Positions 9,188 to 60,956 of a DNA stretch of 64,000 nucleotides are shown in pieces. Under the pieces are notes generated by a model. It was not told the DNA's origin and searched no databases. It saw only the letters and a program-made list of their open reading frames with translations. The position numbers and the translations under genes were made by a program. The stretch lies in the IMG/VR virus record IMGVR_UViG_3300015607_004160. The stretch is one strand, 5' to 3'. Numbering within the stretch: position 1 is the stretch's first letter; each line of letters opens with the position of its first letter. This DNA is from a virus. Lineage: Duplodnaviria > Caudoviricetes.

Positions 9188-9523
9188 ATGAATAAAATCA
9201 AAAAGTACGACGAATTATCCTCAGATATTGAGAATAAAGACTTAGATCCAGAAATACAAAAACTTAAAGGTGAGTATCAAATCGAAGAAATCTTAGATAT
9301 ATTTACCGACCCGAAAGATATACCTGTTACTGAAGGTGCTATTGGCATAAATACGGATTTATCAGTCAAAGAGGTTAAAAGAGGTGATTATATTTGGATA
9401 ACAGCTTTACTTAGAAAGCAAGGGCATAGCTTTACATCACCTGCCGTACAAGGTGTTATTAAATTAAGAGTTGTTGATATATTCTATGGATTGCAATACC
9501 TAAATAAAGTTATAAATAAATGA
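9188..9523 (+). CDS. hypothetical protein, CTS-like N-terminus
   Basis: MNKIKKYDEL; TAATATATA at 9175-9183. Confidence 0.75.
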   Translation: MNKIKKYDELSSDIENKDLDPEIQKLKGEYQIEEILDIFTDPKDIPVTEGAIGINTDLSVKEVKRGDYIWITALLRKQGHSFTSPAVQGVIKLRVVDIFYGLQYLNKVINK

Positions 9524-10551
9524 AATATTTAAAAATATTTGAAAAATTTAATACATTTTATTATAAGCTAACGCAGAATGAGTTTGATGAAATGATACAG
9601 AGTCCTGATATATACACATTTACTCAACGTGATATGTCAGTAATATCTGATTTTGCAAAAAGAAAAAAATATATCTATCAAACTAATAGTGTTGATATAA
9701 TAAAGTTTGACTCCAGAGAATGGTCATTATCTGATGATTGGGACTTAGATAAGTGGATATCATCATCCGAAATTAGAATACACGAAGAAAACAATATTAC
9801 AACATATAAAGCTAATCAAGATATTTCTAAGGGAACTCATTACTGTGGGACAATAGGACAAAAGGAAGAATATCTTAAAGTAGAAAACTTCACAATTAGA
9901 CTTAAAAAGTATATGATTAAATATCCAAATAGTAGATTTGGGGGATCGTTACCACTACCACAAAAGCATATGCTAAACATAGATATAATGAAATGTAGTG
10001 ATGAGTGGTTTTTAGTTGTATTTGACAATAATATTATGTATAAATGTGATCAATTAGATGGGCTAATAGAATTCATGTCGAATATAAATACATTGGAAGC
10101 ATTTAGAGATGAATACCATTCTCTATATGATATAGAAAAAAATAGAGAGGAATATTGGAATGGATATCTTAAGAAATTAAAAGCTGATCAGGATGAACTA
10201 CAAAAAGAGATGGAAGAGGATCCACACTATTTTACAATGATTAGCCAGGATGAGGTAGATGAACTTTATGATAACTTGGTCAGCTTCAAAGATGATGAGA
10301 TTGAAAAAATAAAAGAATTATTTAGCGATAAATATTTAGTATATAAAAAGACATGGAAAAAATATGACTCTGATAATACCGAAATCTTTATAGAGGCAAT
10401 TAGACCAAATTGCATAATTAGAATTTGGAAATTAGAAGATGAATGGTATATAGTTTCAACAAGTGATGCAAACGATAGAGGAAGAGTGAATGATAAATGT
10501 GATCAATTTGATGGACTAAAGAGATTATTAAATAAAATATTAATAAAATGA
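9520..10551 (+). CDS. hypothetical protein, CTS-like N-terminus, two DEW..CDQxDGL domains
   Basis: MKYLKIFEKF; internal duplication DEWFLV..CDQLDGL / DEWYIV..CDQFDGL. Confidence 0.8.
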   Translation: MKYLKIFEKFNTFYYKLTQNEFDEMIQSPDIYTFTQRDMSVISDFAKRKKYIYQTNSVDIIKFDSREWSLSDDWDLDKWISSSEIRIHEENNITTYKANQDISKGTHYCGTIGQKEEYLKVENFTIRLKKYMIKYPNSRFGGSLPLPQKHMLNIDIMKCSDEWFLVVFDNNIMYKCDQLDGLIEFMSNINTLEAFRDEYHSLYDIEKNREEYWNGYLKKLKADQDELQKEMEEDPHYFTMISQDEVDELYDNLVSFKDDEIEKIKELFSDKYLVYKKTWKKYDSDNTEIFIEAIRPNCIIRIWKLEDEWYIVSTSDANDRGRVNDKCDQFDGLKRLLNKILIK

Positions 10552-12446
10552 TACGTATTAAATTATTTGAAGAATTAAATAAAAGTAAGCCTAAGGTAAT
10601 TATTTTTCAAGGATCGCCAAGGGATAAAGATACTTGTCCAAATATGGACAGTAAAACACATACAATAGTTGAATACATCATTGAAAAATATTCTGATGTA
10701 TATGATTTTGATATAATTGATTTATCAGTAAACCAGTCTAAAAAGTCAATCATACAACCATGTAAAGGATGTGTATCAACTGCTGGGGGATATCATTGTA
10801 TTGCAAAAGGTGAAAGAGTAGAAACAAAGTATGGATTTAAGAAAATTGAAGATATTCAAATTGGAGATGAACTATCTACTGGAGTAGTTGAAAATGCTTG
10901 GATGTCAGGAAAAGACTCTGATGTATTTGAAGTGATAGTTTCGGATGGTAGAAAAATAAAACTTACCGACAATCACCCAATAAAAATAATAAATCCAATA
11001 TATAAAAATGGTAATAAGAGAAAATTAATTGGATATGAAGAAAAGTGGAAAAATGTAAAAGATATCAAAATTGGTGATAGACTTCCATTTAATTTTAATG
11101 AAAATTTTATTAACGATGATAATAACATTAATGTTTATCATATTGCTGGTATGATATGGGGAGATGGATCATATAAGAGTGGAAAATTAAGATTGTGTTA
11201 TGATATAAGAGATGAAAAACTTTTTAATTTTATATCATCTAATTTTGAAATTTCAGTTTCACAAGGTCCAATATCAAAAAATACTACTACCAACTGGATA
11301 TCTTTTAAAGATAGAAATATAAACATCTCGCTAAACACTTTAATTAAATCAGAAAAGATTAAAAATATTCACAGTAGAAGAATACCAGATATAATAATGA
11401 ATTCTTCTAAAATACAAATATCTAAATTTTTAAATGGATGGTTTGCTACTGATGGATCTGTTATATTAAGAAATAATAATGGAAATAAATATTATGAGAT
11501 AAATTTAACAAGTGTTAGTAAAGATTCTCTAAGAGATTGTCAAATGTTATTATCAAAGTTTGGAATAAAATCATCAATATCATATCTAGATCATATAGAA
11601 ACTTTTAGATTTAATAAATTTATTAAAAGGTCTTCTATGTTGATTATAAGCGGTAAAAATGCCAATATATTCATGCGAGAAATCGGTATAATTAACAAAG
11701 ACTACAAATTTGAATATATTAAATATAGAAATTCTAAAAAGCATACATCCTTCGGAAAAATTGAAAGCATAGAAAGCATTGAAACATCGGATGTCTATGA
11801 TATATCTGTTAGTGATTCTCACAAATTTATATGTGAAGGTATTGAGGTACATAATTGTCATTGGTACTGCACATGTTATAAAAAGAATGATGAAAAAAAG
11901 CCAGACTTTATGTATGACGGAGACATATATACCAAGCTTGAAAAGTGTGATGCTTTTTTAGTATTTAGTCCAATACATTGGTACTCTGTTAGTAGTCAAG
12001 TAAAAGCTTTATTTGATAGATTAGTTTGTGCTAGTCAAACATTACACTATGATGACGCTATTAAAGTATTGGGAAAAGGAAATTTGAAAAATTCAGAAAT
12101 AACCGGTAAATTTGCACAATCCGGTGAATATAACGATTTGTTAAAGAATCACTTAGAGGGTAAAGTAGCAGGATTTTATGTACATGGTGATGATGGAGCA
12201 AACGATTATGATGATAAAGAATTGCCAGAATCATTTAAAGACGAAAAATTCACACCTAAGCAAGCAATAACGCCGATAGTAAATCAATGTAGATACTCTG
12301 GTATAAACGTCCCTAATGACCTTATAGAGGCATTCTATATAAATAAAGATAAGGATTATTATACAGCAAATTTAGATTTAGAAAATCTATCAAAACCATT
12401 TGATAATGCTGATAGATTATTAAAAAATTTAAAGAAATACATATGA
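10548..12446 (+). CDS. iron-sulfur flavoprotein / NADPH-FMN reductase family protein interrupted by an intein
   Basis: QGSPR, PCKGCVST..H|CHWYCTCY, SPIHWY, KALFDRL. Confidence 0.85.
   Translation: MIRIKLFEELNKSKPKVIIFQGSPRDKDTCPNMDSKTHTIVEYIIEKYSDVYDFDIIDLSVNQSKKSIIQPCKGCVSTAGGYHCIAKGERVETKYGFKKIEDIQIGDELSTGVVENAWMSGKDSDVFEVIVSDGRKIKLTDNHPIKIINPIYKNGNKRKLIGYEEKWKNVKDIKIGDRLPFNFNENFINDDNNINVYHIAGMIWGDGSYKSGKLRLCYDIRDEKLFNFISSNFEISVSQGPISKNTTTNWISFKDRNINISLNTLIKSEKIKNIHSRRIPDIIMNSSKIQISKFLNGWFATDGSVILRNNNGNKYYEINLTSVSKDSLRDCQMLLSKFGIKSSISYLDHIETFRFNKFIKRSSMLIISGKNANIFMREIGIINKDYKFEYIKYRNSKKHTSFGKIESIESIETSDVYDISVSDSHKFICEGIEVHNCHWYCTCYKKNDEKKPDFMYDGDIYTKLEKCDAFLVFSPIHWYSVSSQVKALFDRLVCASQTLHYDDAIKVLGKGNLKNSEITGKFAQSGEYNDLLKNHLEGKVAGFYVHGDDGANDYDDKELPESFKDEKFTPKQAITPIVNQCRYSGINVPNDLIEAFYINKDKDYYTANLDLENLSKPFDNADRLLKNLKKYI
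10797..11855 (+). mobile_element. intein with LAGLIDADG homing endonuclease (353 aa)
   Basis: Starts CIAKG; block B LTDNHP; IAGMIWGDGS and FLNGWFATDGS; block F VYDISV; ends VHN followed by +1 Cys. Confidence 0.92.
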
Positions 12447-12470
12447 AATATTTAAAAAGAATACAAGATA

Positions 12471-12857
12471 ATGAAATATTTAAAAACATTTGAATCAAAA
12501 AAATCAGGTCCTAATTTCAAAAAAATTATAATTGATGATTTTGTTATATATCAAGGAAAAGATGCTGAGGCAAATGATTATGTTACATTAGAAGTAGCAA
12601 ATGATAATGATATGTGGTTTCATGCAAAAGGTGTTCCCGGTAGTCACGTCGTAATGAAAATAAAAGACAAACTACCAACACAAGAGACAATTAAAAAGGT
12701 GGCTTTAATAGCTGCTAAGAATTGTAAATCAAAAGATAATAGTATTAAAGTACTTTATTGTAAGAAAAAATTCGTTAAAAAAGAAAAAGGAATGAATCCC
12801 GGACAAGTTAAAGTAGATTATAATAACGCTGATGAAATAATCATTGAAAAAAAATAA
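12471..12857 (+). CDS. stand-alone NFACT RNA-binding (DUF814) domain protein
   Basis: GKDAEAND, DMWFHAKGVPGSHVV, PGQV; CTS-like MKYLKTFES. Confidence 0.85.
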   Translation: MKYLKTFESKKSGPNFKKIIIDDFVIYQGKDAEANDYVTLEVANDNDMWFHAKGVPGSHVVMKIKDKLPTQETIKKVALIAAKNCKSKDNSIKVLYCKKKFVKKEKGMNPGQVKVDYNNADEIIIEKK

Positions 12858-13014
12858 TATATACCTATATGACAGGAGTTTATTTAACAAAAGGAGCAAG
12901 TGATATCTTTGACTCTATGGAAAAATAATCATTGAAAAAAAATAATATATACCTATATGACAGGAGTTTATTTAACAAAAGGAGCAAGTGATATCTTTGA
13001 CTCTATGGAAAAAT
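12835..13014. repeat. exact 88-bp tandem duplication
   Basis: ATG 12869 and ATG 12957 lie in identical context; includes TAATATATA at 12855 and 12943. Confidence 0.9.
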
Positions 13015-14567: not shown

Positions 14568-15009
14568 TATGAAACTTAAAAAATACTTTGAAATTAACGA
14601 AAGAGAAGGGTTTGATGATATAGATCAACCATTAGATGACTATCCTGAAATTCCTGAACTTGAGGAAGTTGAAGAAATAGCTCAGGATGATATCATTGAA
14701 AACTTACTATCTACACTTAGAAAAATGATAAAAAATTCTGGATTTGAGAATTATTATGTATTTACTGATGATGAAGGCAGCATTAATGTTCAATTTGTTT
14801 TAAATAAAACAGAAAAAATAGGTAGTGTTATGAAAATTATGAATCTACTTAAGAAGCTAGAAACTGATATCCTAATACAATACGAATCTGAGTTCGATTT
14901 ATGGGAAGTCAAAAGTGGTGAACCTTTAATAACAGCTAAATTCTTCTATGATGAAGATGTGGCGGCACCTACTTCATTAAATGATATTGAAGGCGAAGTT
15001 CCATTTTAA
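14560..15009 (+). CDS. acidic hypothetical protein, CTS-like N-terminus (start may be 14569)
   Basis: MKLKKYFEINE. Confidence 0.7.
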   Translation: MDNMKLKKYFEINEREGFDDIDQPLDDYPEIPELEEVEEIAQDDIIENLLSTLRKMIKNSGFENYYVFTDDEGSINVQFVLNKTEKIGSVMKIMNLLKKLETDILIQYESEFDLWEVKSGEPLITAKFFYDEDVAAPTSLNDIEGEVPF

Positions 15010-15023: not shown

Positions 15024-15344
15024 ATGAAACATATTAAAAAATTTAACGAAAGATTTTTTGAAAGAACTATTAAAAAAGTATCTCATACTGCACAGAGAAT
15101 AGTTCTTCCAACATTTACCTCGAAGGAATGTGAGGATCTTGGGTATAAAATTGGATTTGAGTTAGAAAAAGATAGGTATGCCTTTTCAAGAAAAGATATT
15201 AAATTAGGAGATGAAGTGTTCTATCTTGGACATGATGGTGTTGGTGGATGGTGGTATGGAAACAAAACGATAGCTGACCAAGAATTAGTTGATAAGGCCG
15301 AAAATTTACAATTTTATAAGAAAGTTGGTGTAGTTGTAGATTAA
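15024..15344 (+). CDS. hypothetical protein, CTS-like N-terminus
   Basis: MKHIKKFNE. Confidence 0.7.
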   Translation: MKHIKKFNERFFERTIKKVSHTAQRIVLPTFTSKECEDLGYKIGFELEKDRYAFSRKDIKLGDEVFYLGHDGVGGWWYGNKTIADQELVDKAENLQFYKKVGVVVD

Positions 15345-15757
15345 ATTATCCATTTCGGAGGTTGTATAATTGATTGTGTATTAAACAGTCGTTTATGCTT
15401 GTAAAATTTTTCAATTTTTAGTAAGAATTCATTCAGCTCCTCATATGTATCTAATATAAAATATCTGCTGCTATCTTTATTTGGACTACCAAAGTCCTCA
15501 AAATCAACTGAAACTAAATAATACTCATCATATTGTTTATCTATTGATATTCTATAAAAATAATCACCATTCCTTTTATAAAACTCTAATTGAATATCAG
15601 AATTTCTTGTTAGGTAGAAAAGGTCCCATTCATTGATATCTGCGAATTTCTTTACTAGGTCTAATTCCCTTTTATTAAGTTCTTCTGGTTTATCAATTTT
15701 GTTATATTCATCGATTTTTATTTCTCTAAAATTTTCAAATAATTTAAGATATTTCAT
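15341..15757 (-). CDS. hypothetical protein, CTS-like N-terminus, DEY..D domain
   Basis: MKYLKLFENF; DEYYLV..ILDTYEEL; TAATATATA at 15767-15775. Confidence 0.75.
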   Translation of the reverse strand: MKYLKLFENFREIKIDEYNKIDKPEELNKRELDLVKKFADINEWDLFYLTRNSDIQLEFYKRNGDYFYRISIDKQYDEYYLVSVDFEDFGSPNKDSSRYFILDTYEELNEFLLKIEKFYKHKRLFNTQSIIQPPKWII

Positions 15758-21568: not shown

Positions 21569-23518
21569 TTATTGTTTAAATTGGCTATAATTAGATAGAT
21601 AATAGTAAAATATGTAAGCTTCTTTCATATTTGAATTTATAATTCTTTGTATTAATCTTTCACAAGTCCCTGCTATTGAATAAGCAATTTGTTTTGCTTT
21701 TTCTGGATCTATGTCTTTATGATTTTCTACTACCTTGCCTATTATTGTATTCAAGTCATCTCCTCTATAAATATTTGATAAATACTTTCCATTAATTATA
21801 GGATTAAGTGAGAAGTATTTTACCTCATCTTTATAATTTACAACCTCAGGCCACCCAATTCTATTTTTTAAAAGTTCAAATACCTGATCAAATTCTGATT
21901 CTATCAGTTTTCTATATTCTTCCATAATTTTATCATGATCACCATTAAATTTCTCATATAGCTCATTATTAGTTCTATAAAAGTCATTTAGTCTAAGTAA
22001 ATCATTTGCCTCATTGAGCTCTGTAATTTTCAAATCAATATATTTCTTATCAACACCCTCTATGGAATTTAATTTTTCCATAAATTCCTTATACCTAACA
22101 TTTCTATAAACATTTTGATAGTAGTTACGTTTTGATTCTACATCAAAATGTTCTGACAATTTGAATCCAAATACTTTAGAATCTATTTCTGGTGATGCAA
22201 AGTAGGATGACTTATAGATTTTCTTATAATCTTCTTCTGATTCTTCTAAAATAGTATAAACAAAGACAGCTTTGCTTTTTAAATAATATAATCCGTTATG
22301 TTCAAATAGTAATTCCTTTAAGTAATAATTTCCAGTGAGCTCATCAGCCTCATATACTTCTCGATATTTACTATCATCTGGATACCAATCTCTATTTTTA
22401 CCATTGTCATCCATAAAAACTTCAATAGCATCTCTTGAGTCTAAATAGTCATTAATAGCTTTTGATTTAACTGCATTATCTGCATATAAATGTGAGTCAT
22501 AATAATCACTCCAAACAGTCATATGTTCAGGCAAATAGCTACGTAATTTCTCAGACCAAACACATTCATCTTCTGGCCATGACTCATCTATATATTCACA
22601 ATATCTTTGATCTTGCCTATCGGCACTACCATCAGTTTCTTGTAAATAAAATAATTTTTTTCTATCTACGTTATTAGGTTCATAATTATATAATTTTTGT
22701 TCACCAGCATGAAAGTAAACAAACGAATCCATGTAAGGATATTCACCATAGTCTGATGTTGGTCCCAATTTAATTTCAAATCTACCCCTACTTGTAAAAA
22801 AAACAACATTTTTATCTTTGAATTTCTCCTTTACCCATGACTGTAACAATCCAGTATCCGAATCGTTTGTATAGTAAACCCTATCCAAATAAATCGAATT
22901 ATCTGTTGTTTCCCATAATAAGGCTCTTGATAGAAGTTTATTTTTTTCATCTACTTGTATTACTAATTTACAAACATCTGGATTTTTAACGTAGATATTA
23001 AGATAACCCTGAGCCTCTTCATATCTCATACAAGATTTTCCTAAACTTCCCTTACCCCTTCTAGTGTCTATACAATATCTCTCATCAAAGTACCAATATC
23101 TAATATCCTCACCACTAACTATTCTTATTGAATCCTCTTGTGTATTAATTTTATCATAAGCCGCTTTAAATCCATTAACAAAATTCTCCATTTCTTTATC
23201 CGTTTTACTAATTCCATTATCATTTAATATTGAACGACATATTCTACCAATAGAAGTTGTGTTAGCTTTACTTAAAAATAAAGCTGGTAAATTTATAGAT
23301 TTTAGTTTTGTAGTTGCCTGATTATCAGGTATAAATGAAACAGTATCATTTTTATCTGTTGTCTTAAGTATATTATAGTTGGTCTTAATATCTTTATCAA
23401 TTAATGATAGTAAATCTTTAGCTGTTGGATCACTCATGGATGATAAAACAGTCTTAAATTCATCAGATGTATGTAAAATAGACTCTAACAAAAAATCACT
23501 ATATGTCTTTAATTTCAC
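21569..23518 (-). CDS. SCM-motif family protein 1, CTS-like N-terminus
   Basis: MKLKTYSDFLLES; GSLGKSCMR, RALLW, YLDRVYY, YPYMDSF. Confidence 0.8.
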   Translation of the reverse strand: MKLKTYSDFLLESILHTSDEFKTVLSSMSDPTAKDLLSLIDKDIKTNYNILKTTDKNDTVSFIPDNQATTKLKSINLPALFLSKANTTSIGRICRSILNDNGISKTDKEMENFVNGFKAAYDKINTQEDSIRIVSGEDIRYWYFDERYCIDTRRGKGSLGKSCMRYEEAQGYLNIYVKNPDVCKLVIQVDEKNKLLSRALLWETTDNSIYLDRVYYTNDSDTGLLQSWVKEKFKDKNVVFFTSRGRFEIKLGPTSDYGEYPYMDSFVYFHAGEQKLYNYEPNNVDRKKLFYLQETDGSADRQDQRYCEYIDESWPEDECVWSEKLRSYLPEHMTVWSDYYDSHLYADNAVKSKAINDYLDSRDAIEVFMDDNGKNRDWYPDDSKYREVYEADELTGNYYLKELLFEHNGLYYLKSKAVFVYTILEESEEDYKKIYKSSYFASPEIDSKVFGFKLSEHFDVESKRNYYQNVYRNVRYKEFMEKLNSIEGVDKKYIDLKITELNEANDLLRLNDFYRTNNELYEKFNGDHDKIMEEYRKLIESEFDQVFELLKNRIGWPEVVNYKDEVKYFSLNPIINGKYLSNIYRGDDLNTIIGKVVENHKDIDPEKAKQIAYSIAGTCERLIQRIINSNMKEAYIFYYYLSNYSQFKQ

Positions 23519-49242: not shown

Positions 49243-50262
49243 ATGCCAATACCATTAATAGACAATTTTAATATAAATTCAGAATTACCAATAGATAGTA
49301 GAATTATTGCAAGTAGTTCAACTGAAAGAGACGCCATTAGTTATAAATATGATGGATTGAAAGTTTTTCAATTGGATGATAGAATAACTTATACATGGAA
49401 TAAGACAAGTAGTTCATGGGACACACTTGATACTAATACCTTAGGTCAAGGCACGGCTAATTATTTATCTAAATGGGATGCGACTGGATTAGGATTAACA
49501 AATTCCTCTATTATATCTTATCCAAAAGCATTCAATGAGGTAAATCAAAAAGTAGGTGTTGGTGGTACTCCGAGTGAGGCTTTTCAGGTTAATGGAAACT
49601 ATACAGATTCAACCATAGGTACAAGTTCAATGCCATTTGTTGTTCATAAAGGAGCTAATACAATTATAGGTGAGAACTGGTATTGGGATGTATCTTTACT
49701 ACAAGATAAATCTTTTGATTTATCATTTGCCTCTAGTACTATAACATTTAAAAATGGGGGGGTTGAATTTAAAGGAAGAACTGCTGGAAGCGCAGCAACT
49801 ATGAAAAGTGGAGTAACTATTAATGTTGATTCATCAATTAGTATTGTTGGAACAACAAGTGTACCAAGCTACACAGACGGAACAATTTATTATGATACAC
49901 TCCGATTCAAGGTTAAGGAGTCCGGAGAGTGGAGAACAATATCAAGGGTTTATGATGTTTATTCCACATTGTTATCACAATCGGGGACATCCGCACCAAC
50001 TGAAACACTGTTAGAATCAACTATAGGTTCTGGAACTTGGTCATATGTAGGAGTTGGTATTTACAACTTAACTATAACTAATGGATTTGTTGGGACCGTG
50101 CCTAAAATAAATGGATTTGTTGGTCCATATACATCGACAGGTGTTTTCTTTGGAGTAAAGATAAATGATAGTACATATCAAATAAGAACTTTATTTTCAG
50201 TGGGAACAACTCAATCAAATGATTTATTATCAACTACAATGATTGAAATACGAGTATATTAA
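49243..50262 (+). CDS. putative tail-fibre-associated protein
   Basis: PIDSR..ERDAI..YDGLKV N-terminus; GTANYLSKW; QSGTSAP..LE.TIG C-terminus. Confidence 0.6.
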   Translation: MPIPLIDNFNINSELPIDSRIIASSSTERDAISYKYDGLKVFQLDDRITYTWNKTSSSWDTLDTNTLGQGTANYLSKWDATGLGLTNSSIISYPKAFNEVNQKVGVGGTPSEAFQVNGNYTDSTIGTSSMPFVVHKGANTIIGENWYWDVSLLQDKSFDLSFASSTITFKNGGVEFKGRTAGSAATMKSGVTINVDSSISIVGTTSVPSYTDGTIYYDTLRFKVKESGEWRTISRVYDVYSTLLSQSGTSAPTETLLESTIGSGTWSYVGVGIYNLTITNGFVGTVPKINGFVGPYTSTGVFFGVKINDSTYQIRTLFSVGTTQSNDLLSTTMIEIRVY

Positions 50263-50939
50263 ACAATTTTTATAAACCAATAGTTGAAGTAAACATAGGA
50301 ATCTCCTATTAAGCTATAATATTCATTTTCATGCTTCATAACTATTTTATTATCATAAGATCTGATTACTTCAATTTCTGTATCTTTGTTAATTCTTAAT
50401 AGTTTGCCATTATCAACATTTAAACAATAAGCTTCACTATTAACTAATTTATATTTACCATTATCTGGGGTTAACCACTTTTTTACTATTTTAATAACCA
50501 ATCCTTTGATTTTAATAACCCATTCTTTAGTTTGAACCAAATCAGTATTTTTAAATACTTCAGATTTAAAAACTGGATCTTCTGTTAAAATATCCTCAAT
50601 TAATCCGAAATATTCTATTTCATCAATAACAAATGAGATATAAACATCATAATTAACATCATTAGATTTAGATATTCTCAATATTTTCATTGATGTAATA
50701 TTTTGCTTTTCTAATGAAAGTTTAGACTTTAGTATGTTAAACTGTGGCGTATTAGACAAACTATGTAATAATCCATTGATTTTAGATGTTGCTGCTCTTA
50801 TAGCATCCTGATGCTTATCAAATGCATTTATAGAAAGTTGTGGATTATCAACATGAACTGCCATTTGACCCATATCTGGATTTAATCTTTGTGCGTTAAA
50901 CTCAGTAAATTCTAATATTAGATTATTTTTACTTTTCAT
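50259..50939 (-). CDS. hypothetical protein
   Basis: TAATATATA at 50955-50963; LILEF near N-terminus. Confidence 0.7.
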   Translation of the reverse strand: MKSKNNLILEFTEFNAQRLNPDMGQMAVHVDNPQLSINAFDKHQDAIRAATSKINGLLHSLSNTPQFNILKSKLSLEKQNITSMKILRISKSNDVNYDVYISFVIDEIEYFGLIEDILTEDPVFKSEVFKNTDLVQTKEWVIKIKGLVIKIVKKWLTPDNGKYKLVNSEAYCLNVDNGKLLRINKDTEIEVIRSYDNKIVMKHENEYYSLIGDSYVYFNYWFIKIV

Positions 50940-50980: not shown

Positions 50981-51286
50981 ATGAAGATTAGAAGATTCAA
51001 TGAGGCTGAAGAAATGAATATATCAAATGAAAGAGTAGAGGAAATTATTAACGAACTATCATCTATGACTTCGGATATAAATGAAAAGGCTAAATCTATC
51101 TATACATTAGCAGGTGAGTTAGAAAATTACCGAAGTAAATCTAAACAAGCTAATAATCAGATTGATGATGCTTCTTTAAATATGGATTCTCTTAAATCTA
51201 AATTAGATGAATCAACTACCCTACTTGATAATATTATTGATCTTTTAAAGGATTATATTGAAGGTGGTGAGAAATATTTATATTAA
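50981..51286 (+). CDS. coiled-coil protein, CTS-like N-terminus
   Basis: MKIRRFNE; heptad pattern. Confidence 0.7.
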   Translation: MKIRRFNEAEEMNISNERVEEIINELSSMTSDINEKAKSIYTLAGELENYRSKSKQANNQIDDASLNMDSLKSKLDESTTLLDNIIDLLKDYIEGGEKYLY

Positions 51287-51840
51287 TTATAATCTTTTGA
51301 ATCTTCATCTGCTCCCATACTAACACATACATCAAGAAATTCATCACCATTAAGCTCATCATAAGCGTTTATCCATTGCATTAGTTTAAGTCTTATTTCA
51401 CTTAGTTCGTTAAAAGTCATTTCTTTCCACCAAATACCATATGATGAATCATCAATAGAGTGAATTACTCCTCTCATATGATATAAATCCTCACCTTTTT
51501 CATTTTGCTTAAACTTAGCACCTGTTGGACATACAATATTTATTGATACCGGGTTATATTTTCTACTATAAAGATGTGAAGCAGTTTCTTTATCAACCTT
51601 TTTTAGGGTTATCATTTCATCTTTATAAGTTAATTTTCCATCTTTAGATTTAAGTATCATACCAGTAAACCATAAATTTAGATACTTACCCATTTCAAAT
51701 TTTGATAAATTATATACAAAATAGTAATCAGTATGCTCTGTTTTACCTCTATTAGTTTTAAAGGTAGGCCATGTTCTTTTCTTACTTACATTTAGTAATT
51801 CATTTATTTCAAATGCGTTATATCTGTGTATGTATTTCAT
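51283..51840 (-). CDS. hypothetical protein, CTS-like N-terminus
   Basis: MKYIHRYNAFEINE. Confidence 0.7.
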   Translation of the reverse strand: MKYIHRYNAFEINELLNVSKKRTWPTFKTNRGKTEHTDYYFVYNLSKFEMGKYLNLWFTGMILKSKDGKLTYKDEMITLKKVDKETASHLYSRKYNPVSINIVCPTGAKFKQNEKGEDLYHMRGVIHSIDDSSYGIWWKEMTFNELSEIRLKLMQWINAYDELNGDEFLDVCVSMGADEDSKDYN

Positions 51841-52415
51841 TATTTATTGAATTTCAATTTGTATATTGTTTTGTAAAGAAGAGCAACTATTTCATCAACA
51901 ATATTATGTAAATGTGTATCCTCTGCCGGAATACAACTTCTACTTTCTCTTACATACTTTACAAACTCTTCAAAATATTCGAGTTTATCTTTTGTAGTTG
52001 TATCACTCGTGTCTATTGTATCATATTTTTCAATAATACCATACTGGCCTTGATAAACTTCTATTATTTCATCAATAAATCCAAGTATTCCGTTATAGTA
52101 AGCATCTAACGCCATATGTGATGCATATGACCCTTCATCACCTCTAACTTGAAGGTGATAAACGTGTGTTTTTTGTCTTGATTCAAATATTTTTGAAAAG
52201 AATTTAGCAGCATCTGTAATATCAGTATGTGGTTGCTCAGCAGGTTGATCAGCTTGTGGTTGTTGTTGCTGTTGAGGTTGTGCACCATCAGGTGCTTGAA
52301 TAACTTCAGCCTTAACATCCACAGATGCTGTATTACCAGCAGATTGATCTGGAGTAAGGTTTAATGTTATTTCTTGTTCATTTACTTTAAATTTAAAGTC
52401 TGAAAATCTTTTCAT
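51840..52415 (-). CDS. ferritin/Dps-like (DUF5856-type) protein, CTS-like N-terminus
   Basis: HVYHLQ..SYASHMAL..YY..D..E.YQG.YG; TIYKL. Confidence 0.75.
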   Translation of the reverse strand: MKRFSDFKFKVNEQEITLNLTPDQSAGNTASVDVKAEVIQAPDGAQPQQQQQPQADQPAEQPHTDITDAAKFFSKIFESRQKTHVYHLQVRGDEGSYASHMALDAYYNGILGFIDEIIEVYQGQYGIIEKYDTIDTSDTTTKDKLEYFEEFVKYVRESRSCIPAEDTHLHNIVDEIVALLYKTIYKLKFNK

Positions 52416-52424: not shown

Positions 52425-52859
52425 TTATTTTTTTCCAAGTAATTTATCATTCATCACTTTATGTATTAGAATTCCATCATGCCCAGCAGTTCTCATTGTA
52501 TGATAAAATTCTAACTTTTCAGTAGCGGTAGGCATTTTATCACCAAATAATGCTTCCCAATAATTTAATACTTTTTCCTCCTCAGTTTCTTCTTGTGAAT
52601 CTTGCGAAACAAAAACAGGCCTACCAAACGGATCTCTTAATACATTATTTTCCATTAGTTCAAAAAACTCTTCTTTATTTGTTTGCTCAACACTAGATAT
52701 ATTATATCCAGATTGACCTTTAACAGATGCTAATGTCGAATCAGCAATATAAGAAGCTTCACCTTCACTTGATGCTTCCACAATTAAATCTATTTCTGAT
52801 TTAATTTTAAAGTATTGTTGGCTTTCAACGTTTTCAACTAAAATACTAAATTTATTCAT
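52425..52859 (-). CDS. hypothetical protein, CTS-like N-terminus
   Basis: MNKFSILVEN; TAATATATA at 52865-52873. Confidence 0.7.
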   Translation of the reverse strand: MNKFSILVENVESQQYFKIKSEIDLIVEASSEGEASYIADSTLASVKGQSGYNISSVEQTNKEEFFELMENNVLRDPFGRPVFVSQDSQEETEEEKVLNYWEALFGDKMPTATEKLEFYHTMRTAGHDGILIHKVMNDKLLGKK

Positions 52860-52904: not shown

Positions 52905-54002
52905 ATGATGAAATATATCAAAGAATTTGATAATTATAAGTTAAACGAGGCGTTAGGAATTGCAGAAGCAACCTTATTTTATGTCAATGTCATTAAGGCT
53001 AAAATACTAGAGGAGATATTGGATTATATGGATGGTCGTCCAAATTTAGATAATCAAGAAGAGATGGAAGTAAAAATACCATTTACTAAGATAAGAAGAT
53101 ATGTTACTGATTGGAACTTATATGCTGATTTTCCAGTTTCCGAAATTACAATTAATTTAAAAATGATTAAGAAACGTCCTAATGATGTTAAACTAAAGGA
53201 TATTGATTTAGATCATCTTGTACAAGCTCCATTTAAAATGGGAGGATATGCATCTCCATTTGCAAGAGGACGAGAAAAAGAGGCAGCTCGATTTAAAGAT
53301 CCAGTTAAATTAAATACGGATCATAGTATATCAATTCATATGGAAATTGATTTTGAATATTCTGCAAATTTTAGAATGGATAGACATGAGGAAAAGCTAG
53401 AACTAAAATTAGAATCAGTTGTTTTACATGAGTTAAATCACGTATATGAATCTTATAAAAGAAAGTCTAAAGGAGAAAAAGAAATAGAGTATACTACAAC
53501 ATGGGCATCAATTGGGCCAAATAGAAGAAGAAGGCCAAAAGTAATATTTGACTATTGGCAAGATAACTTTACTGATTATATTTATATGTCCGAGCCTCAT
53601 GAAGTAAGAGCTTATATACAAGAAGCGAAAGCATATGTTGATAAGTTAGATTTAATGTCATTTCAAAGAACATCAATATGGAAAATGGCAAAAGTTATGC
53701 AAGGATATGATTCAACTAAATTTAGAAAAAATTTTGATAAAGTTGTAAATAATTACAACCCAGAATATGTTGGTAAAATAACAGATGTATTAGTTAAGGA
53801 CTTTATAACAGAATATAAAAGATTGTCTTTAGAATTCAAAGAAGAAAATATCATTAAACCAGAATTATTATCCAAAATGAATACAGATCAATTCTTTGAT
53901 TTTTGGCAAAAGAAAATAAGAAAAGCCGGAACAACAATTGTTAAAAAGATGCTCCGACTTTATACTTATAAAAAAGATAGAGAAGAAGAATTATTAGACT
54001 AA
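52905..54002 (+). CDS. putative zincin metalloprotease, CTS-like N-terminus
   Basis: LHELNH plus downstream EVRAY; MKYIKEFDNYKLNE; TAATATATA at 52892. Confidence 0.65.
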   Translation: MMKYIKEFDNYKLNEALGIAEATLFYVNVIKAKILEEILDYMDGRPNLDNQEEMEVKIPFTKIRRYVTDWNLYADFPVSEITINLKMIKKRPNDVKLKDIDLDHLVQAPFKMGGYASPFARGREKEAARFKDPVKLNTDHSISIHMEIDFEYSANFRMDRHEEKLELKLESVVLHELNHVYESYKRKSKGEKEIEYTTTWASIGPNRRRRPKVIFDYWQDNFTDYIYMSEPHEVRAYIQEAKAYVDKLDLMSFQRTSIWKMAKVMQGYDSTKFRKNFDKVVNNYNPEYVGKITDVLVKDFITEYKRLSLEFKEENIIKPELLSKMNTDQFFDFWQKKIRKAGTTIVKKMLRLYTYKKDREEELLD

Positions 54003-55218: not shown

Positions 55219-55461
55219 ATGAAATACCTAAAAAAGTTTGAAGCTTTTGCCGCAGCTGAACCAGTTGTAAAACCTGGAACTAAGGAACCGCCAGTAAAAC
55301 CATCGAAACCAAGTAGTCCAGCTAAACCAATAACAAGACCGGGTGTAAGTCCTGATCCAAAAGCTAAAAAAGAAAAAAAGGCAACTGAATTAGATGTTGC
55401 AAAGAGATTTATTAGTGAATTAAACAAAAAAGGTGAATCTGTTAAAAAATATTTAAAATAA
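55219..55461 (+). CDS. small Pro/Lys-rich protein, CTS-like N-terminus
   Basis: MKYLKKFEAF; TAATATATA at 55188. Confidence 0.75.
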   Translation: MKYLKKFEAFAAAEPVVKPGTKEPPVKPSKPSSPAKPITRPGVSPDPKAKKEKKATELDVAKRFISELNKKGESVKKYLK

Positions 55462-57104: not shown

Positions 57105-58901
57105 ATGTTATTTAAAAATTACCAAGAGTTCGCTAGTAACTTTAAAATAGATGAAAATGTCCAACAGGCTAAAATATGGATGAAAAAACGTGCTTTAGCT
57201 GATAAGAGAACAAAAACTAAAAAAGAAGATGCAACTTTATCTCCAGAGGAGGTTAGAAAAGTTGAAACCAATCCAGAATTTATTAAGATAAGGGATATGC
57301 TAAGAGATAATCCTGGATATGTTTATGCGTTTACAAGATTTTTCTTTGAAGAGGAAGTTCCTTTTGATGATTTAAAAGACATGTATGCAAAAATTAAAGA
57401 ACACAGAGCTGTTATTTCTACACTACCAATGCCGGTTGAAAGATATGCTGATATTACACCAGATGATAAAGACAAAAGAAAAGGATTTGAAAGATTAGGT
57501 GATGATATTGGTAAACTTGAATTGAGTAGAATTACTAAAAAATGGACAGATAGACTTCCAGGTGATTTTACAGTTACAAACCAAGGTGCAAAAGACAAAG
57601 GGGTTCAAGTTCCTTCTATTAAAAGAGCCTATCAAAATTCGCCAGATGCAATAAAAGAAAAAGTTGCAGGTATTGCAAAAGCTTTTGATGAGTTTGGTAA
57701 AGAATCTGATGGATCAATTGATCATAAGAAAAACAAAGAATTACAAGATTTATTCTTTGATAAAATCAAGAGATATAGAAATTTAAATGAGGTTATACAA
57801 GCTGCTATAGGATATATTAAATCAGCTAATAATGCAAGTATATCTAAATTTTTCCAAAACATTCAAAGAGTTAACGAAAAATATGGTGAATTAAATGGTG
57901 CGGACATTGTATATGATGATCATAACATATTGATTTTAGAAATCAGATCATTTTTTGCGAATAAGGAATTAAATGCTAACACCTCACACTGTATTGCATC
58001 AAGCTCCTATCAGTGGGACAACTATGTTGGATCTGATAATAATTTTAATAAGCAATATTATATTTATAACTTTAATTTATCACCAGGTGATGATAAGTCT
58101 GTAATTGGTATTACAATCGCACCTAGATCTGAAATTAGAGCGTGTCATACTAAGTCGGATGCTGGATATAGTGGACAGATAAAAGCATATATGAATCAAA
58201 TTAAAGTTCCTTTTGATGTTTTAGCTCCAATGTCAAATGATGAAATAGAAAGAAAGAAAAAAAGAATTATTGCAAATAAGGAGATTATTAAAAGTAACTT
58301 ATCATTATCTCAAATTCAAAAATATTATGAGGAAGGTGGTGATCCAAATGCTCAACAAGGTAAACCTCTAATTAATTCTGTAAAGGAAGATGATTATGAA
58401 AAAACTGAATGGTTATTAGAACATGGAGCTATGCCAAATATTGGAGGAGCTATTAAAGGTGCTCAAAATTTACCAATGATTAAATTATTGGTTAGTTATG
58501 GTGCTACAATAACCAATGAGATATTTAATAGTGTTGCTAGTGATTTTGAAGGTGTTAAATATTTACTTGATGCAGGGGTTGATCCTGATTTCGAGCAAGG
58601 ATTACCATTAAGAACAGCCGCTAAGATTAATAGAAAAGATATTTTGGAACTATTGGTTAATAGAGGAGCCAAGATAAGCACTAGAAGGTACATGGTTGTT
58701 AAATGGGCAGCTGAATGGGCAAATATAGATATCTTAAAATGGTTGTTAGATAAATTGGAAGAATCCGGTGAGAAAATTGAAGAAAAAATTCTTAGAGATT
58801 GGATACACTGGTCACAAACTTCTGATAAAATAAATGATACACAAAGGAGCGAAGTTAAAGCAGTATTAGAAGAGACAATAAAGAAATGGTTCAAGAAATA
58901 A
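57105..58901 (+). CDS. ankyrin-repeat protein with PcfJ-like middle domain, CTS-like N-terminus
   Basis: TSHCIA..W..Y..QYYIYNF; repeats such as LLEHGA, LVSYGA, LLDAGV, LVNRGA. Confidence 0.7.
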   Translation: MLFKNYQEFASNFKIDENVQQAKIWMKKRALADKRTKTKKEDATLSPEEVRKVETNPEFIKIRDMLRDNPGYVYAFTRFFFEEEVPFDDLKDMYAKIKEHRAVISTLPMPVERYADITPDDKDKRKGFERLGDDIGKLELSRITKKWTDRLPGDFTVTNQGAKDKGVQVPSIKRAYQNSPDAIKEKVAGIAKAFDEFGKESDGSIDHKKNKELQDLFFDKIKRYRNLNEVIQAAIGYIKSANNASISKFFQNIQRVNEKYGELNGADIVYDDHNILILEIRSFFANKELNANTSHCIASSSYQWDNYVGSDNNFNKQYYIYNFNLSPGDDKSVIGITIAPRSEIRACHTKSDAGYSGQIKAYMNQIKVPFDVLAPMSNDEIERKKKRIIANKEIIKSNLSLSQIQKYYEEGGDPNAQQGKPLINSVKEDDYEKTEWLLEHGAMPNIGGAIKGAQNLPMIKLLVSYGATITNEIFNSVASDFEGVKYLLDAGVDPDFEQGLPLRTAAKINRKDILELLVNRGAKISTRRYMVVKWAAEWANIDILKWLLDKLEESGEKIEEKILRDWIHWSQTSDKINDTQRSEVKAVLEETIKKWFKK

Positions 58902-58905
58902 AAAT

Positions 58906-58930: not shown

Positions 58931-59174
58931 ATAATTTCCACCCATCTTCAAGAGCATCTTTTAATTTATTTACATTATCTCCAATTGATTTAAAATAATC
59001 TTTATACCCTCTTCCTTGATTAGGAATCTCTTTTTCTTCAGTCTCTTCCTTATCTAAGTTCCAATAATCAAAGTTCGGATCATCATAAAATCCTAAACTC
59101 CTCCACTGAATACTACCATCATCAAGAAGAAAATGATCTTGGTAACTCACCATATTCTCCTCTACTAACATCAT
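58929..59174 (-). CDS. hypothetical protein (possibly frameshifted tail of upstream gene)
   Basis: 53-nt overlap with 59122-60003. Confidence 0.45.
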   Translation of the reverse strand: MMLVEENMVSYQDHFLLDDGSIQWRSLGFYDDPNFDYWNLDKEETEEKEIPNQGRGYKDYFKSIGDNVNKLKDALEDGWKL

Positions 59175-60003
59175 ATAATAAATAAAGTTTACTCATCTCA
59201 TCTTCGACTGGCAATCTTTTAAAGATTACGATATAAAATAAATATCTTGGAAAATCATTAAAAAATTCTCTCAATTCCTTTTCCGATTGTTTAGGCGGAA
59301 GTTTTAATAGTTTTCTCCACCAACTTTCTACTTCAGTTTTGACAGTTGTACTTTTATACCAATTAGTGCCACCATAATAAGCACCAGTAGTCATATACTT
59401 CTCTATCCACTCTTTATTTTTCTTTAATCCAGCTTTCCATGCAGCATCTGAAGAGTACCTAATTGCAGCCCTATATGTCTTAGGTTTAACTGCCATAATA
59501 TCATCATCTTCATATATAATATCAAATTCATTTCTTTCTATTTTAACATCTTCTTCGAGAAGAATATCCCATCCCTTTTTATGAATAGTTTTTGTAGTCT
59601 CTTCTATATTTAATTTATCCCAATCATCTTCAGAAAAGAAGACAACTTTACACAATCTATCTTGTTGATTAAAGTTAATTACAAAAAATTTCAAACCATA
59701 ATATTTAGTCCGATTTCTAATATCTGATTCTGCAACAAAAAACTTGTTTAACTCATAAAATCCAATAATATAATATCTGATATAAGAACTCTTAGTAACA
59801 TTAGATAAAGATCCCCTTTGTGGAATTTTACTTTGATATTTGTTATATTGATCATCATCTAATATATTATCCAAATTAAAATTTGGGAGTATCCATTTAG
59901 ATTCTACTGCAGAAGTATGTGTTGGGATATAAGCAGCAATATCATCTATATTATCTATAGTTTGTTGAACAGTGAAAGATTCAAATAATTTAACATGCCT
60001 CAT
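59122..60003 (-). CDS. hypothetical protein, CTS-like N-terminus
   Basis: MRHVKLFESF; IYEDD..AVKPKTY.AA..Y resembles the middle domain of 57105-58901. Confidence 0.7.
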   Translation of the reverse strand: MRHVKLFESFTVQQTIDNIDDIAAYIPTHTSAVESKWILPNFNLDNILDDDQYNKYQSKIPQRGSLSNVTKSSYIRYYIIGFYELNKFFVAESDIRNRTKYYGLKFFVINFNQQDRLCKVVFFSEDDWDKLNIEETTKTIHKKGWDILLEEDVKIERNEFDIIYEDDDIMAVKPKTYRAAIRYSSDAAWKAGLKKNKEWIEKYMTTGAYYGGTNWYKSTTVKTEVESWWRKLLKLPPKQSEKELREFFNDFPRYLFYIVIFKRLPVEDEMSKLYLLYDVSRGEYGELPRSFSS

Positions 60004-60956
60004 TATTTCAATTTAATATTAAAATATACCCAATATGAGTTATATGATATATTGACTAGTAAACTTTTTGACCATTTGTATTTTGATAGCCAGTTCTTAA
60101 ATTCAGATTTTAAATGTTGATATGATGTATCCTCCAATACACCACCATCCCATTTGCCAATACCATAATATCCAAAAGTAATGACATCTCCATTTACAAT
60201 AGGTCCATTTTTAGATTGTGCATTTAAATTAAAGTTTGTAATTTCATTACAAATTTTACCAAATAGAGAAATATTATTAATATTCAAAGATACAATATCT
60301 TTTTTTAATGGCAATGCTGATTGTGACTGTAACATTAATAACCAATTTAAACTACCTTTATTCAATTTAAACTCACCCATTGGTATTATTTTATCGGTGT
60401 AAAATCCATATTCAAACATTGAGTTAGATTTAATGCCATAATAAAGACCGCAAGAATTATTTGTATAATCAACTAATTCCATAAACATGCCTAATGATTT
60501 AAATCTATAGAATATAGATTTAACTTTATTAATGTCAACTTCCATAGTTTTATAAAAAAATAAAAAATCACTTGGATTATCACTTTTCGGTATGTTCTTT
60601 AGTCCTAACGCAGTAATAGCCTTTAAAAAGGAATTAAATATATTTTTACCAGCTTTTACATCTAAACTTTCAAAAACAACATTTGTCATTATATCAACAT
60701 CTTTTTCCTTTTCACCTTTATTTAAATAATTATAAACACGATAAAAAAGTTGTTTTTTATCAAAATCAGGTAATAAATTAACAGCATTAGATATTCTAAT
60801 ATCAGTATCGGATTCTTTTATATAATTTGATACGATACTTAATAGATAATCATTTTCCTTAGTAACTTTCTCAATATACTCACCAATTGAATGATATTCT
60901 TTTTCTAAGTCTTGATACTTAGACTCAAGTATAAAATTTGAATATTTTGATATCAT
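60003..60956 (-). CDS. hypothetical protein, CTS-like N-terminus
   Basis: MISKYSNFILES; TAATATATA at 60963-60971. Confidence 0.75.
   Translation of the reverse strand: MISKYSNFILESKYQDLEKEYHSIGEYIEKVTKENDYLLSIVSNYIKESDTDIRISNAVNLLPDFDKKQLFYRVYNYLNKGEKEKDVDIMTNVVFESLDVKAGKNIFNSFLKAITALGLKNIPKSDNPSDFLFFYKTMEVDINKVKSIFYRFKSLGMFMELVDYTNNSCGLYYGIKSNSMFEYGFYTDKIIPMGEFKLNKGSLNWLLMLQSQSALPLKKDIVSLNINNISLFGKICNEITNFNLNAQSKNGPIVNGDVITFGYYGIGKWDGGVLEDTSYQHLKSEFKNWLSKYKWSKSLLVNISYNSYWVYFNIKLK

Follow-up and report, generated by a model that had tools for sequence, protein, structure and literature searches.

Twenty-nine of the 75 open reading frames in the window, as the whole 64,000-nucleotide stretch of phage DNA analysed here is called, were recognised by eye as sharing an N-terminal tag: a basic residue, the core aromatic-x-x-aromatic, and then hydrophobic-x-Glu. 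A possible thirtieth carrier begins at 9188. The tag is a portable linear motif, and its Glu end is usually followed by Ser or Asn. On balance, the sequence features suggest that it serves as a capsid-targeting and cleavage tag of the T4 type, used on a far larger scale. We infer docking, cleavage, retention and injection of the tagged proteins: these would be made late, alongside head proteins; as the prohead assembles, the tag would bind to its scaffolding core, which is probably built from a protease-scaffold fusion with repeats that the tag appears to imitate; the fused T4-type prohead protease would cut after the tag Glu; and the mature protein would remain inside the head, to be delivered with the DNA into the next host. 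The sequence-level predictions of a T4-type capsid-targeting sequence (CTS) that were examined all appear to hold. The phage is uncultivated and has a genome of about 640 kb. Exact 50-mers gave no match in IMG/VR, and comparisons were made via two relatives of 635-642 kb (LR756502 and LR745206).

The N-terminal tag and its carriers

Interior protein segments provided the background for tag frequency, with an interior match rate of 0.2-3%. A leave-one-out matrix places 16 N-termini at 6 bits or more (interior, 0.2%) and 21 at 4 bits or more (interior, 0.65%). The "about 30" leader proteins of the first-pass annotation are thus a generous count (29 by eye and the possible thirtieth), the strict one being about 20; its "third of the genes" applies to this tag-rich stretch and not to the complete relative, where the strict matrix gives at least 8%. 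When only the core [FYW]-x-x-F is required, with its start at residue 3-8, 19/75 ORFs have it, as do 3.1% of interior windows (binomial p=1e-12); after internal Met residues the figure is 1.9%. Overall, the tag motif is 8-100 times rarer within proteins than at their N-termini. All 20 N-termini quoted earlier translate as written, at the given coordinates and strands; the sequences stand, with the corrections that the ORF at 23518 starts with GTG and that the tag assigned to 26277 begins at the second Met of that ORF (26283, Table 1).

The core [FYW]-x-x-[FLYH] occurs in 24 of the 29 tags, with F (15), Y (8) or W (1) in first place and most often F (18) in last. Its register shifts between residues 3 and 7, and F, Y and W interchange. 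In a subtype, MKY[IL]KxF[NL]ES, the spacing from Y to F is four residues rather than three. The Glu lies 8-17 residues from the start, most often at residue 11. The counts for this end come from a set picked by eye and not blind to Glu: [LI]-x-E is found in 18/29 tagged vs 6/46 untagged proteins, [LIVMFY]-x-E in 25/29 vs 12/46, and hydrophobic-x-E-[SNAQH] at residues 6-22 in 17/29 vs 4/46 (7.8% of interior windows). Four of the 29 tags have no hydrophobic-x-Glu within residues 6-22.

Table 1. Tagged ORFs of the window. A slash sets off the residue that follows the tag.
Positions	Strand	N-terminus	Remarks
9188..9523	+	MNKIKKYDELSSD	possible carrier; first gene of late operon; leave-one-out score 8.0; late motif 13-14 nt upstream
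9520..10551	+	MKYLKIFEKF	343 aa; body of no known family; operon-internal
10548..12446	+	MIRIKLFEEL	FMN-reductase-like flavoprotein split by intein with LAGLIDADG domain
12471..12857	+	MKYLKTFES	NFACT-R domain; tag disordered in model
14569..15009	+	MKLKKYFEINE	
15024..15344	+	MKHIKKFNE	
15341..15757	-	MKYLKLFENF	
21569..23518	-	(M)KLKTYSDFLLES	GTG start; member of multi-copy paralogue family
23567..24331	+	MISKFLEFKDES	nucleotidyltransferase (marginal Pfam match)
25023..25751	+	MITKFDQFYNINE/N	
26283..27812	+	MLSKYDDFILE/Q	paralogue family; C-terminal Cys-rich domain
30065..31465	-	MKIRNFSQFNE/S	HAD phosphatase (FDFDDT at residue 262) behind extra modules of about 250 aa
33265..33567	-	MKYLKTFETF	
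33641..34444	+	MKLLRYSDHS	weak variant, kept in both relatives
34437..36650	+	MISKYSNFLIDKLLE/S	paralogue family; 737 aa
43358..44179	-	MNILRWEQFLE/S	SAM methyltransferase-like
44999..45475	-	MKHLYAFNKFFE/S	
45478..45918	-	MIKKFEQFILE/N	best matrix score
47003..47716	+	MRWIKTYENF	start fixed by late motif 14-15 nt upstream
50259..50939	-	MKSKNNLILEFTEF	shifted variant, conserved in both relatives
50981..51286	+	MKIRRFNE/A	coiled-coil-like body
51283..51840	-	MKYIHRYNAFEINE/L	
51840..52415	-	MKRFSDFKFKVNE/Q	DUF5856
52425..52859	-	MNKFSILVE/N	weak variant, kept in both relatives
52908..54002	+	MKYIKEFDNYKLNE/A	HExxH at residue 174
55219..55461	+	MKYLKKFEAF	80 aa
55465..57081	+	MKNFQKFLE/E	538 aa; only in the two close relatives
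57105..58901	+	MLFKNYQEF	YQEF as in T4; ankyrin repeats
59122..60003	-	MRHVKLFE/S	
60003..60956	-	MISKYSNFILE/S	closest to scaffold repeat and to T4

The bodies behind the tag are unrelated, an all-against-all BLAST comparison yielding a single family of three paralogues, and paralogy was rejected as the source of the shared N-terminus. The bodies belong to diverse Pfam families. The enzyme names of the first-pass annotation are confirmed in part: the domains and motifs found are FMN_red with an intein, NFACT-R, the HAD motif FDFDDT, DUF5856, HExxH and ankyrin; NTP_transf_2 is a marginal match, the methyltransferase falls below the cut-off, and the labels 'Fe-S' and 'Dps-like' are putative. 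The median pI of the tagged bodies is 5.9, the same as that of untagged proteins, and the test for basic proteins found no difference between the two sets. The genome is 28% G+C, and a tRNA scan of the window found none.

The tag remains N-terminal where domains were added, as seen when the protein encoded at 30065-31465 is compared with its orthologues. Across the two relatives, orthologues of tagged proteins carry a tag in 20/29 cases vs 4/38 for untagged proteins (p=1e-6); different codons are used at 26 of the 75 conserved tag residues (35%), and body identity is 30-60%. Among 111 NFACT-R homologues, the tag Glu is conserved in 99% and the following Ser in 87%. The AlphaFold2 model of the NFACT-R protein, with a pLDDT of 41 for residues 1-10 vs more than 90 for the domain, places the tag as a predicted disordered extension outside the fold.

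In Cellulophaga phage phi38:1, the homologue of the tagged paralogue family consists of the body without the tag; it is annotated only as 'hypothetical protein' and lies in a non-structural neighbourhood. Three large tagged proteins were used as tblastn queries on 50,697 phage records. Two have no matches beyond the two close relatives; the third, from the paralogue family, also matches other huge phages and Cellulophaga podophages, where the proteins are untagged and named 'hypothetical protein'. A PHROGs search with seven tagged proteins of no known family returned no informative family, and an ESM Atlas search with the product of 55465-57081 gave no usable match.

Promoters, relatives and the head module

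A late motif of the TTAATATATA type precedes 15 of the 29 tagged genes in the window. Another 12 are operon-internal, their upstream genes overlapping or abutting them. The peptide is therefore independent of the mRNA 5' context. The promoter motifs stand 12-37 nt from the ATG, so the leaders of these transcripts are very short. In LR756502, the late-type motif lies upstream of 42/70 tagged vs 129/844 untagged genes (p=9e-16); the portal gene has the same motif, and the genes for the major capsid protein (MCP) and the protease have close variants. The early-type motif is on no tagged gene. Judged by promoter motif, the tagged genes are probably late and expressed together with the head proteins. 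The genes for PolB, DnaB, a helicase, RNR, Dam and the N6/N4 methylases are all untagged, as the first-pass annotation had observed for replication genes. It had named equal frequency on replication and early proteins as evidence against its reading; neither the replication and DNA-modification genes nor the early-promoter genes carry the motif.

A second, C-terminal tag is found on early or small proteins. It has about nine carriers by eye, all without the N-terminal tag (0/29 N-tagged proteins); in LR756502, it occurs in 0/70 N-tagged vs 52/844 other proteins. The two tags are mutually exclusive.

The matrix trained on the window recovers 70 of 914 ORF N-termini in LR756502 vs 0.15% of interior segments, and 16/107 in a sample of LR745206 vs 0.2%. 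In sampled regions of huge phages with T4-type heads, it finds 0/44 in LR756504 (about two by eye) and 1/37 in LR756500. A sampled region of Lak-A1 has the tag on 0/57. GAP32 and PA5oct have related proteases and an annotation based on mass spectrometry; the 40-kb samples of their head regions reveal no expansion of the tag. Phage pT24, reached through a PolB match, has at most one tag-like N-terminus.

The window contains no gene for a prohead protease or a protease-scaffold protein. The relatives carry a portal (PF07230, 1e-57), an MCP (PF07068, 4e-28) and a head maturation protease fused to the scaffold (phrog_207, 6e-28; the PF03420 match is below the Pfam cut-off). The module of predicted gp21-type protease/scaffold, gp20 portal and gp23 capsid protein is seen in LR756502, LR745206, LR756504 and LR756501. 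The fusion includes 10-12 copies of a 14-residue unit, ..YSEY[IL]AE.., and the tag resembles, and may imitate, this repeat (YSEYIAE). A matrix built from the scaffold repeats finds window N-termini about five times more often than interior segments. The four genomes with these repeats have them in almost identical form, which deprives a test of co-variation between tag and repeat across clades of any power.

Comparison with T4 and phiKZ-type phages

The T4 internal proteins IPII and IPIII (MKTYQEFIAE) bear the CTS, and IPI and Alt bear related propeptides; the prohead protease gp21 cuts all of these off (Mullaney and Black, 1996; PMC9026906, PMC5694885, PMC8442874). Targeting has been assigned to residues 4 and 7, processing to residues 8 and 10, and the propeptides are 10-19 aa long (PMC9026906). 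The T4 genome and a paper both confirm the T4 sequence cited in the first-pass annotation, and the likeness which that annotation proposed is borne out: the aromatic residues at P7 and P4, [LIF] at P3 and Glu at P1 correspond to the residues identified by mutagenesis in T4 (aromatic 4 and 7, Ile8 and Glu10). As in T4, a leader of 8-17 residues with a basic residue first precedes otherwise unrelated proteins, and joins aromatic-x-x-aromatic (Y4 and F7, targeting) to [IL]-x-Glu (I8 and E10, processing). One tag reads YQEF, the closest relatives have a T4-type portal, scaffold and gp23 and a predicted T4-type protease, and the genes are apparently late. Carriers are far more numerous, with 20-30 in 64 kb here and at least 70 in the complete relative, whereas T4 has a handful; T4 internal proteins are small and basic, whereas the bodies here are mostly acidic or neutral enzymes. 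In the MKY[IL]KxF[NL]ES subtype, the aromatic residues are at P7 and P3, with none at P4; because the Y/F spacing is four and not three, its match to the T4 targeting positions is only partial. Unlike in T4, the scaffold of this clade is fused to the protease and contains a tandem array of tag-like units.

In phiKZ, 201phi2-1 and SPN3US, ejection or inner-body proteins have long N-terminal propeptides that are cut by the prohead protease at A/S-x-E (PMC5694885, PMC7411985, PMC10052503). Like the predicted system, these giants have a protease that cuts after Glu and propeptides thought to target the prohead. Their heads are loaded with about 50 proteins, of which more than 40 MDa is ejected. 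In contrast, their propeptides are 80-160 residues long and do not share a short consensus, processing affects only about 8-19 proteins, and at the sequence level they are unrelated to the T4-type head genes of this clade. The N-termini of T4-type scaffolds share the pattern K-x-x-[FL]-[IL]-x-E-[SNA] with the tag (T4 gp22 MLKEQLIAE, GAP32_249 MSKLDKFLNES and PA5oct gp330 MTVKFEHILNEQ). However, these are single core-forming proteins, and the pattern is not spread over other proteins in the GAP32 and PA5oct regions sampled.

One copy of each of the 29 tagged proteins amounts to about 0.94 MDa. Since T4 packages about 1000 molecules of internal protein and SPN3US over 40 MDa, head capacity is not limiting. 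Several points speak against packaging: the scale, from 8% to more than 30% of genes, would be unprecedented; enzymes of an ordinary cytoplasmic kind (PPK2, RNA ligase, CCA/poly(A) polymerase, NUDIX and methyltransferases) would be among the cargo; and the tagged bodies are not basic, whereas T4 internal proteins are. Also counting against it are the divergent register of the MKY[IL]KxF[NL]ES subtype, the four tags that have no hydrophobic-x-Glu, the sub-threshold PF03420 match, the location of the protease-scaffold gene outside the window, the near-absence of the tag from sampled regions of other huge phages, and the non-structural setting of the phi38:1 homologue.

Alternative roles of the tag and the implications of the proposed packaging

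A cargo of cytoplasmic-looking enzymes and bodies that are not basic would also suit a portable address label with a reader other than the prohead core: an N-terminal degron or adaptor handle for the Clp protease of the phage, a propeptide trimmed by its M28-like peptidases, or a signal for another late assembly or compartment, which together with the C-terminal tag would form a system of proteome timing or localisation. A Clp-type N-terminal degron needs a reader of the ClpX, ClpA or ClpS type and a phage or host unfoldase. A ClpP gene (53994-54680, PF00574, 2e-59), the one Clp component found in the window, lies among the tagged genes, the window has two M28-like peptidase genes whose homologue adjoins the untagged body homologue in phi38:1, and the mutual exclusion of the two tags also fits. 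We regard such a label as unlikely, since it leaves unexplained the likeness to T4 at four residues mapped by mutagenesis, the likeness to the scaffold repeat, the near-invariant Glu-Ser end and the regulation shared with portal and MCP; nor is it obvious how the phage would benefit from a degron on dozens of late enzymes. Binding to the scaffold could instead make the carriers expendable core or filler, degraded or expelled at maturation like T4 gp22, gp67 and gp68. The apparent imitation of the scaffold repeat is compatible with this, as are the tag-like beginnings of the GAP32, PA5oct and T4 scaffolds themselves and the very large core that a very large head requires. But a filler role would be pointless for the many bodies that are intact enzymes whose catalytic domains are conserved, and bodies are conserved at 30-60% identity between relatives; this fate is less probable still.

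Least credible is a shared N-terminus without protein-level function, arising either from the mRNA or translation initiation of late genes, for instance where an AT-rich Bacteroidota phage makes leaderless or near-leaderless transcripts, or by common descent of 5' ends. The closeness of the promoter motifs to the ATG and the base composition of 28% G+C would suit it; the operon-internal position of 12 tagged genes, the shifting register and interchangeable aromatics of the core, the codon differences at 35% of conserved residues, a Glu-Ser conserved like a catalytic residue, and the 129 late-motif genes of LR756502, portal gene included, that are untagged all argue against it. A nucleotide-level signal was rejected on the synonymous codon changes and the operon-internal tagged genes.

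In T4, the targeting sequence is known to serve three internal proteins and Alt. If packaging by a T4-type tag is correct, the huge phages of this clade might, as a more tentative extension, load a ready-made 'starter proteome' of at least 70 proteins (probably well over 100 in this genome) by means of a clipped, scaffold-imitating tag, which together with the C-terminal tag of early proteins would amount to two-label addressing. The enzymes would be made late in one cell and be the first to act in the next. They would include RNA-repair enzymes (Rnl1-type ligase and CCA/poly(A) polymerase), methyltransferases, ankyrin proteins and nucleotide-signal enzymes (Acb1/2H-type, DHH, NUDIX and PPK2). 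A device addressing 8-30% of megaphage genes could account for part of the many extra genes of huge phages and for late promoters on enzymes that resemble early-function or anti-defence tools, and would reveal how a head of this size acquires its contents and its core. The tag would also allow the virion cargo of uncultivated phages to be predicted by a simple sequence rule, and its natural versions are possible candidates for T4-based protein delivery.

A recurrent N-terminal peptide on unrelated proteins

All 20 N-termini quoted in the first-pass annotation are present in the window sequence; ORF 23518 starts with GTG and the tag of ORF 26277 begins at the second Met. By eye, 29 ORFs are tagged, with a possible further one at 9188 (range 9188-60956), accounting for 8,568 of the 20,126 coded residues in the window. 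The tag consensus is [IL]-K-[KR]-[FY]-[ES]-x-F-[LIN]-[LNE]-E-[SN]. The pattern [FYW]-x-x-F starting at residue 3-8 is found in 19/75 non-overlapping ORFs vs. 3.1% of interior windows (p=1e-12), and its rate after internal Met is 1.9%. With a leave-one-out matrix, 16 N-termini score at least 6 bits and 21 at least 4 bits (interior windows, 0.2 and 0.65%). Within residues 6-22, 17/29 tagged and 4/46 untagged ORFs and 7.8% of interior windows have a hydrophobic-x-E-[SNAQH] site; the by-eye set was not picked blind to the Glu. Counted up to this Glu, leaders span 8-17 residues, most commonly 11. The claim that a third of the genes carry the leader holds in this tag-rich window (~30-39% of ORFs) but not genome-wide in the close relative LR756502 (~8% by a strict count).

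The tag is not confined to one type of protein. After removal of the first 20 residues, all-against-all BLAST links only three tagged proteins (21569, 26283, and 34437), and the Pfam domains of the tagged bodies are unrelated (FMN reductase with an intein, NFACT-R, nucleotidyltransferase, methyltransferase, DUF5856, ankyrin), which rules out a single gene family as the origin; HAD and HExxH motifs also occur. The three linked paralogues have 7-15 matching places per huge-phage genome, and a homologue in Cellulophaga phage phi38:1 lacks the tag. This untagged podophage homologue, gp037, adjoins an M28-like peptidase that is homologous to two window genes (Table). The FMN-reductase-like flavoprotein, an unusual intein host, contains an intein with a LAGLIDADG domain. 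In the HAD phosphatase protein, ~250 residues absent from the orthologues in both relatives (LR756502 and LR745206) precede the HAD domain and the tag still occupies the extreme N-terminus, whereas in those orthologues a tag of their own leads straight into the HAD domain. No separate copies of the extra modules turned up in a BLAST search of the window.

In the relatives, the tag is present in 20/29 orthologues of tagged proteins vs. 4/38 of untagged ones (p=1e-6). Its sequence drifts while the pattern is kept (MKYLKKFEAF, MKFIKKFEKF, MRFLKKFEKF), and different codons are used at 26/75 conserved tag residues. Of the tagged genes, 12 touch or overlap the gene before them and 15 are preceded by a promoter motif of their own; the peptide thus occurs irrespective of the mRNA 5′ end. 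The codon differences and the operon-internal tagged genes rule out a nucleotide signal as its origin.

The NFACT-R protein has 443 metagenomic homologues and, among the 120 listed, nearly all begin M-[KR]-[YFH]-[IL]-K-x-[FY]-[NLF]-E-S. In 111 aligned homologues the tag Glu (99%) and Ser (87%) are as conserved as the core of the domain. AlphaFold2 (52-sequence alignment) predicts the domain with pLDDT >90; residues 1-10 have pLDDT 41 and no secondary structure. Conserved yet outside the modeled fold, the tag behaves like a short linear motif that would be read by a partner, and a protease site would be expected to look like its near-invariant Glu-Ser.

Coordinates and profile matches of the features discussed
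Feature	Location	Strand	Match or note
M28-like peptidase homologue	2418-3560
M28-like peptidase homologue	12957-14567
FMN-reductase-like flavoprotein, tagged	10548-12446	+	Intein PF14890, PF14528 (residues ~109-436)
NFACT-R protein, tagged	12471-12857
Family-B DNA polymerase, N-terminal half	19250-20752	-
Paralogue family	21569-23518
Paralogue family	26283-27812
Paralogue family	34437-36650
HAD phosphatase protein, tagged	30065-31465	-
ClpP	53994-54680	-	PF00574, 2e-59
C-terminally tagged small protein	671-976
C-terminally tagged small protein	973-1398
C-terminally tagged small protein	1395-1697
C-terminally tagged small protein	5211-5423
C-terminally tagged small protein	16626-17093
C-terminally tagged small protein	18761-19258
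C-terminally tagged small protein	20746-21000
C-terminally tagged small protein	42563-42967
C-terminally tagged small protein	43012-43368
T4-type portal	LR756502		PF07230, 1e-57
Head maturation protease, 699 residues	LR756502		phrog_207, 6e-28; PF03420 below its cut-off
gp23-type capsid protein	LR756502		PF07068, 4e-28
Clade capsid protein	L001:27449-29167
GAP32_249	L014:20625-21752
PA5oct gp330	L015:20601-21707

Likeness to the T4 leader and to a scaffold repeat

The T4 capsid-targeting sequence is quoted as MKTYQEFIAE (PMC8442874). The T4 genome has two copies of it, on short basic ORFs of the ipII/ipIII region that are presumably ipII and ipIII. Such leaders bring all internal head proteins of T4 to the core (PMC5694885). 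T4 propeptides are 10-19 residues long; mutagenesis assigns targeting to residues 4 and 7 and processing to residues 8 and 10, where Asp at position 10 stops cutting and leaves targeting unaffected (PMC9026906). The main window subtype (MISKYSNFILE|S, MIKKFEQFILE|N, (M)KLKTYSDFLLE|S) shares this layout exactly, and YQEF itself occurs in one window tag. In the second subtype, MKY[IL]KxF[NL]E|S, the P7 aromatic, the P3 hydrophobic and the P1 Glu are retained but, unlike in the T4 sequence, P4 is not aromatic.

The head machinery genes are absent from the window; in LR756502, three of them (Table) adjoin orthologues of window genes 12471-15009. The LR756502 protease forms a fusion with a scaffold-like region of 10-11 tandem 14-residue units, NLDKNIxYSEY[IL]AE, in which YSEYIAE is close to both T4 YQEFIAE and window YSNFILE. 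A matrix built from these repeats alone scores at least 14 on 7/75 window N-termini vs. 1.9% of interior windows. The array is also present in LR745206 and in the huge phages LR756504 and LR756501 (735 kb), is degenerate in LR756500 and is missing from Lak-A1. The clade capsid protein and its homologues conserve WMSEYAEFHxINEN in the propeptide region, which joins an SEYAE resembling the scaffold repeat to a hydrophobic-N-E-N element, a candidate maturation site. Tag-like N-termini are likewise seen in T4 gp22 and in the scaffold proteins of the cultured jumbo phages GAP32 and PA5oct: GAP32_249 (MSKLDKFLNES) and PA5oct gp330 (MTVKFEHILNEQ) are unannotated, helical, scaffold-like proteins encoded between the protease and capsid genes.

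Timing, proposed cargo and possible readers of the tag

The motif TTAATATATA lies 13-37 nt before the start codon of 23 window genes, 13 of them tagged, e.g., upstream of 31465(-), 33641(+), 47003(+), 52859(-), and 60956(-); it occurs 27 times in the window vs. ~8 expected. A Bacteroidota-type motif precedes six window genes, none tagged. In LR756502 (640 kb, covered in full), the window-trained matrix passes 70/914 ORFs vs. 0.15% of interior windows; TTAATATATA precedes 42/70 of these tagged genes vs. 129/844 other ORFs (p=9e-16), and the early motif is found upstream of none of the 70. This phage-specific motif is probably the late promoter, because in LR756502 it precedes the portal gene, with close variants at the MCP and protease genes. 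From these counts, the tagged genes therefore share the class of the head genes, a class that also holds many untagged genes.

Families among 68 scanned tagged LR756502 proteins include PPK2, poly(A)/CCA polymerase, T4 Rnl1-type RNA ligase, NUDIX, 2H/LigT/Acb1-like and DHH phosphoesterases, RNase T, HNH, GNAT, and methyltransferases. None is a replication-core family, in agreement with the earlier observation that replication genes lack the leader. Late promoters in front of enzymes of these types would make most sense if the next infection is where the enzymes act. One copy each of the 29 tagged proteins amounts to ~0.94 MDa; since T4 holds ~1000 internal protein molecules and SPN3US (240 kb) >40 MDa of ejection proteins, head capacity is no obstacle.

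The tag motif is real, portable, selected at the protein level and, by promoter class, late. As judged from sequence, the best explanation is a leader for T4-type capsid targeting and cleavage whose number of carrier proteins would be unprecedented, with packaging and cleavage as predictions; no literature linking capsid targeting to huge phages was found. Room is left for a reader other than the prohead core. A ClpP gene lies amid the cluster of tagged genes, and small early proteins bear a C-terminal tag that is mutually exclusive with the N-terminal one: R-[DEN]-x-K-[IL]-x-x-[IL]-[ILV] marks about nine small window proteins (six strict, three by eye), none N-tagged, and in LR756502 52/844 untagged vs. 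0/70 N-tagged proteins. Further points against capsid loading are that the tagged bodies are not basic, that some tags have no clear Glu site and that the tag is scarce in the regions sampled from other huge phages whose heads are T4-type.

Genome, relatives and probable host

Both strands of the window (28% G+C) are densely coding, with genes for DnaB and SF2 helicases, ribonucleotide reductase, two DNA methylases, ClpP, and two M28-like peptidases. Its family-B DNA polymerase is split, as in Tenacibaculum phage pT24: the N-terminal half has the exonuclease domain and no more than the initial third of the polymerase domain, and the second half was not found within the window. The polymerase is 77% identical to that of LR756502.1 (642 kb) and 73% to that of LR745206.1 (635 kb), both metagenomic "uncultured phage" and both used for the genomic context of window genes; identity to other huge phages, including a 735-kb genome and Lak phages, is 30-43%. 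Several small genes (2224, 15990, 18749, 43000, and others) have the Bacteroidota-type promoter element TAnnTTTGTA 12 nt upstream of the ATG. This element points to a Bacteroidota host, and its spacing implies that early mRNAs would be leaderless or nearly so.
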